Under the pieces are notes generated by a model that did no database searches, had not been told where the DNA came from, and worked only from the letters and a program-made list of their open reading frames with translations. A program made the position numbers and the translations under genes. A stretch of DNA of 5,504 nucleotides from a virus. Lineage: Duplodnaviria > Heunggongvirae > Uroviricota > Caudoviricetes. The DNA is taken from IMG/VR virus record IMGVR_UViG_2690316225_000010, positions 1-5,504 of that record; one strand, 5' to 3'. Shown in pieces: positions 3,634 to 4,843 of the stretch (the first letter of the stretch is position 1; every line of letters starts with the position of its first letter).

Positions 3634-4843
3634 GGTGGAAACCTCTGCCCGTTATCTGGGGACCGGCAGTCAGTGGAGTGTATCCGGCCCGCACATTAAG
3701 CCCGGGAAGGATTTCTGGTTTTACGTGCGCAGCGTCAACCTGGTGGGGAAATCTGCTTTTGTGGAAGCCAGTGGCCGGGCCAGCAATGATGCAGAAGGGT
3801 ATCTGGGGCTGTTTCGGGAAAAAATAGGAAAACTGCATCTGGCTCAGGGGCTGTGGGAGCTGATAGACAACAGCCAGCTTGCGGATGAGATGGCGGAGAT
3901 GAAGACCTCCATCACCGAAACCCGCAATGAAATCACACAGACGGTCAGTAAAACGCTGGAGGACCAGAGCGCCACCATACAGCAGATACAGCGCGTGCAG
4001 AAGGACACAAATGATGACCTTGCTGCACTTTACATGCTGAAGGTACAGAAAACAAAAAATGGCATACCCTATGTTGCCGGTATTGGAGCGGGGATTGAGG
4101 ATACTGATGGCCAGCCCCTGAGCAACATACTGCTGCTGGCTGACCGTATTGCGATGATTAACCCGGAGGACGGCAACACCACGCCGTTATTTGTGGCGCA
4201 GGGGAGTCAGTTGTTCATGAACGATGTGTTCCTGAAGCGGCTGTTTGCGGTGAGTATCACCTCGTCCGGCAATCCCCCGACGTTTTCCCTGACGCCGGAG
4301 GGCAGGCTGACCGCAAGAAATGCTGATATCAGCGGAGCAATTACCGCGAATACCGGCACGCTCAATAATGTCACCATTAACGAGAACTGTGTCATCAGAG
4401 GGAAACTGTCTGCAAACCAGATTGAAGGCGACCTGGTGAAGACGGTGGGGAAAGCCTTTCCCCGGAATAACAGTTATGCCAGCGGGACGGTAACCGTCAC
4501 AGTTTACGATGACCAGGGCTTCGACCGGCAGATTATCATTCCCCCGGTGCTGTTTCGCGGGACGAAACACCAGAATTTCAACAGCCCGAATCAGCAGTCG
4601 TACTGGTATTCCACCTGTAAGCTGCAGGTGCTGAAGAACGGGGTTGAGATTTTCCATGAACCGGCAACGGATGTCAGCCGGGTGTTCTCATCGGTGATAG
4701 ATATGCCGGCAGGGCGGGGTCATGTCACCCTGACGTTTAATGTGTCGTCGGCCGGTGCGAACAACTGGACGCCGACAACGTACATCAGTGATTTACTGGT
4801 TGTGGTCATGAAAAAATCCACGGCAGGGATCAGTATCAGCTGA
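2558..4843 (+). CDS. J: Host specificity protein J / central tail fibre, distal part (761 aa from GTG): second copy of the central FN3-like region plus divergent C-terminal receptor-binding region
   Basis: Frame open from 2510 (in-frame TGA at 2507..2509) to TGA 4841..4843. First start is GTG 2558; first in-frame ATG is at 2660. Translation is collinear with lambda gpJ from about residue 398 to the C-terminus. Conserved blocks include [63 protein letters not shown] and VDMPAGRG; the C-terminal ~180 residues are diverged. Confidence 0.8.
3341..3507 (+). repeat. 167-bp perfect direct repeat, copy B (within duplicated J segment 2)
   Basis: Identical to 2256..2422, offset 1085 nt. Confidence 0.8.

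Follow-up and report, generated by a model that had tools for sequence, protein, structure and literature searches.

The distal J module of a 5,504-bp lambdoid contig is a common long-tailed Stx-phage-type allele with OmpC as its probable receptor

The stretch of DNA analysed here (the window, 5,504 bp) is the entire length of one contig (CYBB01000064.1) of draft assembly GCA_001283265.1, and the J region that it carries is placed between gpI upstream and lom downstream, which is the lambda layout and the position expected of a gpJ/TipJ gene (Table 1). The contig runs from within gene I to within lom, as would be expected if it were bounded by prophage repeats. J itself is spread over two open reading frames. 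ORF1 matches lambda J aa 1–757 at 98% identity, in line with the original prediction that the N-terminal 757 or so residues are almost those of lambda, and ORF2, in the −1 frame relative to ORF1, starts at a GTG and has no native start codon. The distal region of concern, positions 3800–4843, was correctly delimited in that prediction, as position 3800 is the first base of ORF2 codon 415 and 4841–4843 is the stop codon, the range being ORF2 codons 415–761 plus the stop. Beyond J, the Ail/Lom gene and lambda lom share about 69% identity in DNA. Ahead of lom, 19 nt past the J stop, positions 4862–4889 form a terminator-like hairpin (GGGCACCT-CAGG-AGGTGCCT, then TTTTTATT); a pattern scan for terminator-like sites near there gave a count no higher than in shuffled sequence.

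Table 1. Genes, domains and other features located in the window.
Feature	Position	Strand	Length or basis
gpI-like gene, last 70 codons (C-terminus)	3..215		ORF list
ORF1: lambda-type J N-terminus, aa 1–757, then 6 out-of-frame codons and stop	276..2567	+	763 aa
Junction of lambda-like J (to nt 2270 of J) with J' (from about aa 394)	2545..2546	+	alignment
ORF2: C-terminal 761 codons of a BP-4795/Stx-phage-type J (J'), about J aa 399–1158	2558..4843	+	761 aa
Two FNIII/Ig-like domains of J', upstream of the studied region; the first of lambda type	3188..3808	+	Pfam, alignment
Alpha-helical shaft (AHS), ORF2 aa 415–490, long variant	3800..4027	+	alignment, AF2
Central straight fibre (beta-sheet prism), ORF2 aa about 491–602, 63% identical to lambda	4028..4363	+	Pfam, alignment
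Ig-like receptor-binding domain (RBD), ORF2 aa 603–761 plus stop, A8/phi330 clade	4364..4843	+	Pfam, Foldseek, alignments
Hairpin, counterpart of phi330 E953–S962 (ENFNSNNQQS)	4571..4600	+	alignment; phi330 AF3 model
Hairpin ANNWTP, counterpart of phi330 A1015–P1020	4757..4774	+	alignment; phi330 AF3 model
Ail/Lom family outer-membrane protein gene, truncated by contig end	4912..5504		

As written the contig encodes no intact J and cannot make a functional tail tip. A continuous J frame of about 1130–1160 aa joining the hub domains to the fibre is absent, and about 360 aa are duplicated: some 1.07 kb of J (aa about 399–757) forms an incomplete tandem repeat with its copies at 1467–2545 and 2555–3609. 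The copies are 78% identical, copy 1 being of the lambda type and copy 2 of the Stx-phage type. Within them a block of about 150 nt (about 2269–2420 and about 3354–3505) is 100% identical in surroundings of 55–92% identity, and in ORF2 a lambda-like stretch (aa 241–340) replaces the divergent BP-4795 sequence. The identical block points to exchange between J genes by mosaic recombination or gene conversion, or alternatively is a repeat of a kind that confuses assemblers. The allele is a member of the gpJ family of which the window holds a copy that is not intact.

The domains of the distal part are those of lambda-type tail tips. Pfam finds on ORF2 Phage-tail_3 and, in this order, Ig_J (aa 211–315), Ig_J_second (aa 317–417), Phage_Tail_Tip (aa 474–601) and Ig_GpJ_C (aa 638–761, E 1.6e-38), the latter four all above the curated cut-offs, and Ig_GpJ_C is defined as [quoted passage not shown]. 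ORF2 accordingly carries the C-terminal domain series of a lambda-type gpJ/TipJ, namely two FNIII/Ig domains, a helical shaft, the tail-tip fibre and an Ig-like RBD. An AF2 model of the RBD (aa 603–761, from an alignment of 28 sequences) is a beta sandwich with pLDDT 80.6 and shares its fold with the solved gpJ RBDs, which is the structure prediction that had been proposed as a check on this domain. The guess that the divergent stretch before it is alpha-helical was also sound: a single-sequence AF2 model of aa 405–501 gives two long helices (aa 407–437 and 440–500, pLDDT 86.6), although it may overshoot the helix into a region that is beta structure in the trimer, and the helical stretch of ORF2 aligns with the AHS domain described for lambda J (PMC11101478).

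Divergence of the distal part from lambda J is real and uneven, and is greatest in two modules. ORF2 aligns with lambda J aa 399–1132 at 62% identity overall, and in a global alignment the segment identities are 93% for aa 241–340, upstream of the studied region, 22% for the shaft (aa 415–490 against lambda J 814–861, with a 28-residue insertion in ORF2), 63% for aa 491–610 and 45.7% with 5 gap positions for the last 151 residues (aa 611–761). At the DNA level blastn gives no alignment to lambda for 3807–4144 and 4391–4843. The strong divergence proposed earlier is thereby borne out, and alignment, which might have returned a high C-terminal identity and so refuted it, gives a gapped and low one. 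The close similarity to lambda J aa 982–1132 and its loops L1–L4 expected of a LamB-binding lambda-type RBD is not found, there being gaps in the loops. Nevertheless the terminal domain is a clear homologue of the lambda RBD, the Foldseek comparison of the ORF2 model with lambda 8xcj/8xck giving TM 0.78–0.79 at 46–47% identity. The motifs FPR, FDRQI, FRG, DMPAGRG and GIS singled out in the original prediction are true conserved columns, but to speak of only scattered motifs understates a likeness of 46% identity with the lambda fold.

Distal J in the window is not a diverged copy of lambda's but a different and common allele, of the BP-4795/long-tailed Stx-phage type. Its DNA (3800–4843) shares 96–99% identity with BP-4795 and with many converting phages of the Stx1a and Stx2a types, and ORF2 is 94% identical to BP-4795 J (ORF72) aa 399–1158. 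Twenty-six phage records, BP-4795, Stx2 phage 1717 and Stx2a_WGPS4 among them, carry the last 151 aa at 100% identity, and 392 complete E. coli genome records match the RBD DNA at 99% identity or more. Nearly all protein matches come from E. coli and are fragments named “host specificity protein J”; E. albertii and Shigella supply a few. The allele is therefore an ordinary one that was already sequenced, and the finding of it, while correct, is not new. Receptor data in the literature were found neither for phages of the BP-4795, Stx2 phage 1717 and Stx2a_WGPS4 types nor, as a published test, for the exact RBD of the window; a 2021 review of Stx phages gives the long-tailed ones no named receptor, and the SNIPE preprint, the source of phage PhiR55_1, holds no receptor data on J alleles. 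A 2026 preprint on receptor prediction was set aside as a guide since its scope is the GpJ of Drexlerviridae and not lambdoid RBDs.

Of the two divergent modules the shaft is uninformative on receptor choice and represents a widespread length variant. The long type occurs in 163 phage records, among which the lambda short shaft is not found, and these include phage 21 (66% identical); since the native receptor of phage 21 is LamB, the long shaft is no evidence for another receptor. Phage 21 was for the same reason rejected as an example of an OmpC user. Shaft and RBD moreover assort independently, as phage 1717 has an RBD identical to that of the window with a shaft only 66% identical, and phage 3W an RBD 89% identical in a J of 1132 aa, the length of lambda J.

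The RBD is the informative module, and here characterised relatives exist. A search against characterised J RBDs, as had been recommended, places A8 (77.5%) and phi330 (76%) closer than lambda (about 47%). The best solved relative is “A8 gpJ 713” (9wca/9wcb), with E 3.6e-135 for 9wca_J versus 2.7e-90 for lambda, and the entry 9wcb, entitled per Foldseek [quoted passage not shown], includes three OmpC chains. The RBD model (aa 603–761) shares the fold of this OmpC-bound domain (9wcb_F, TM 0.83, E 4e-21, 79% identity), and the A8 RBD is in turn identical to that of the Stx1a phage Stx1_131719. A8 and 1A2 are lambda gpJ chimeras in which natural E. coli gpJ C-termini were joined at lambda aa 964; selected on lamB-deleted recipients, they deliver DNA there and require OmpC, A8 accepting the K-12 and EDL933 forms and 1A2 the EDL933 but not the K-12 form (Brodel et al. 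2024, PMC11338833). The phage phi330 (vB_EcoS_phi330) is a natural long-tailed Stx siphophage from a clinical EHEC strain which plaques on all the Keio outer-membrane mutants tested except ompC, with complementation restoring plaques, and in the AF3 model of its authors the hairpins E953–S962, which points into the barrel, and A1015–P1020 are predicted OmpC contacts (PMC12502783). In the deposited phi330 record (PV189401, 17195–20610) J is entered as “tail fiber protein” (1042 aa) and overlaps a 116-aa “hypothetical protein” before it, and its N-terminus may be mis-annotated or frameshifted there. The window has 8 of the 10 residues of the first hairpin and all 6 of the second, ANNWTP, these being predicted and not solved contacts.

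A neighbour-joining tree of RBDs puts the window and phage 3W as sister to the A8/phi330 group with the 1A2 group outside, and lambda (LamB) and 434/2851 distant at 40–48% identity, so that by identity and by tree the allele sits inside a clade bounded by tested OmpC users. The position of 1A2 in such comparisons is approximate, its source text having dropped letters; a hand-corrected 1A2 translation is, to that approximation, identical to the WGPS2 RBD at 147 of 150 positions, and a DNA alignment of these two RBDs has differences at third codon positions. Because the tested lineages on both sides of the allele use OmpC, its closest characterised relatives depend on OmpC and the predicted contact hairpins are conserved, homology and phylogenetic bracketing point to OmpC, and not LamB, as its probable receptor. 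The earlier view that LamB is probably not the receptor gains from this, as all the characterised relatives (A8, phi330, 1A2) use OmpC.

The other half of that view, that LamB might still be bound through a different interface, seems very improbable. The fold and several core motifs are indeed shared with lambda, but the RBDs are only 46–47% identical with indels in the loops, relatives at 76–77% identity work without LamB, and the loss of phi330 plaques in the mutant screen was confined to ompC. More serious, if still unlikely, is that the RBD uses some other outer-membrane protein (OmpF, another porin or another protein) or only a small range of OmpC variants. The RBD and that of A8 disagree at 34 of 159 positions, there are changes in or beside one predicted contact hairpin (E to Q and N to P) and in the NNSY loop, and A8 and 1A2 themselves differ in OmpC-variant range. 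J proteins can also move between porins by few mutations: few substitutions add or change porin use, lambda gaining OmpF and phage 21 gaining OmpC/OmpF. The J of Gifsy-1, which binds OmpC, OmpX and BtuB, may be taken both as an instance of such breadth and as general support for J–porin binding. It was rejected as a close relative, since its C-terminal region is only 18% identical to that of lambda and its closeness to the window allele is not shown. Set against a change of receptor are the use of OmpC in both flanking lineages of the tree, the zero indels relative to A8, the identity of the ANNWTP hairpin, and the placing of most of the substitutions (25 of 34) in predicted strands. It is doubtful, although conceivable, that the 34 substitutions by which this very common STEC-prophage RBD departs from the A8/phi330 type retarget it to other OmpC variants or to another porin.

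Whatever OmpC-directed specificity the allele has, whether the distal J at this locus functions is a separate matter, and the chances are about even that it does not, being either a pseudogene from illegitimate rearrangement between two J genes or an assembly chimera; this concerns the locus and not the specificity of the allele, and in the chimera version an intact J' gene would lie elsewhere in the genome. ORF1 stops six codons past the junction, ORF2 occupies a different frame and is preceded by stop codons, and the join has no microhomology. No exact match to a 31-mer spanning 2545/2546 turned up in three collections of viral, genome or metagenome contigs, and none of 5,426 complete E. coli genomes has the junction as a contiguous match, the halves of the 31-mer occurring there only as pieces about 1083 bp apart inside one J gene. 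The ORF1 protein is not on record. Further, the window comprises one entire contig from a draft assembly, and E. coli genomes hold several J genes each (a median of 3 J-like places per genome). On the other side, graph assemblers normally join at shared k-mers and none is visible here, the same contig is indexed under two samples, and ORF2 is otherwise free of stops over 761 codons. A programmed frameshift at the junction is unsupported, as the 2510–2567 overlap has no slippery heptamer of the form X XXY YYZ; that the junction is real and is read through by frameshifting, yielding a J whose FNIII domains are doubled and whose fibre is longer, is still less likely.

For the allele in an intact J, with OmpC as the probable receptor, a triggering pathway can be proposed by analogy with lambda gpJ–LamB (8xcj) and A8 gpJ–OmpC (9wcb), solved in closed and open states. 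The distal J trimer of this clade would dock onto the trimeric porin OmpC rather than LamB, and the loops at the bottom of the RBDs would grip the porin barrel or insert into it. The bases of the RBDs may then spread and the fibre (prism) twist, with the helical shaft flipping and the FNIII strings dissociating, so that the tail tip could open for DNA ejection. The divergence from lambda, the domain order, the fold, the match to known alleles and the place in the RBD tree are direct results of the analysis; that this very allele binds OmpC, and that it triggers in this way, we infer from its relatives.

As a discovery the locus carries little weight, the allele being present in hundreds of sequenced genomes and phages and the receptor (OmpC) and a solved complex of its class having been known since 2024–2026. 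Its meaning is rather that OmpC is the probable target of a J allele found very commonly in EHEC prophages, Shiga-toxin ones among them. This has a bearing on which strains are open to conversion by long-tailed Stx phages and on selecting gpJ modules when lambda particles are engineered. Should the retargeting by 34 substitutions be true, J alleles would partition the long-tailed Stx phages among E. coli lineages.

Among the closest known systems is BP-4795, its J having a shaft and last 151 aa identical to those of the window, and the J genes of BP-4795 and of long-tailed Stx1a and Stx2a phages have the same neighbours, gpI upstream and lom downstream. The first FNIII domain differs, BP-4795 having its own type where ORF2 aa about 241–330 are of the lambda type, and unlike J of the BP-4795, 1717 and Stx2a_WGPS4 types the J' of the window is without its own N-terminus. 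From phi330 the window differs in the RBD, which in phi330 is of the A8/CP-1639 type; over all 347 residues of the distal region the two J proteins are 86% identical, with the same long shaft, itself identical. A8 has a C-terminal strand as in the window RBD together with the conserved ANNWTP hairpin, yet as a chimera it keeps the short shaft and the fibre of lambda to aa 964 where the window has the long shaft, and its OmpC use is known from experiment and structure whereas that of the window allele is probable from homology. RBDs of the 1A2, Stx2a_WGPS2 and PhiR55_1 type are further off at 64–66% identity (approximately so for 1A2), with the FNS-NQQSYW hairpin deleted and a 4-residue insertion after FPR, although the NNW-P motif and the C-terminal strand are shared and OmpC is used, the EDL933 variant being preferred; lambda and the 1A2/WGPS2 type both have a six-residue gap where the window has its hairpin at 4571–4600. 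The J of phage 434 (lambda h434) is of the same family and fold class and uses OmpC, yet its RBD is 47% identical and on its own branch with phage 2851, and its OmpC use is not evidence for the window allele. Lambda gpJ itself (LamB; 8xcj/8xck) has the domain order and fold of the J described here and presumably the same triggering mechanism, with loop indels in the RBD and a shaft shorter by 28 residues.
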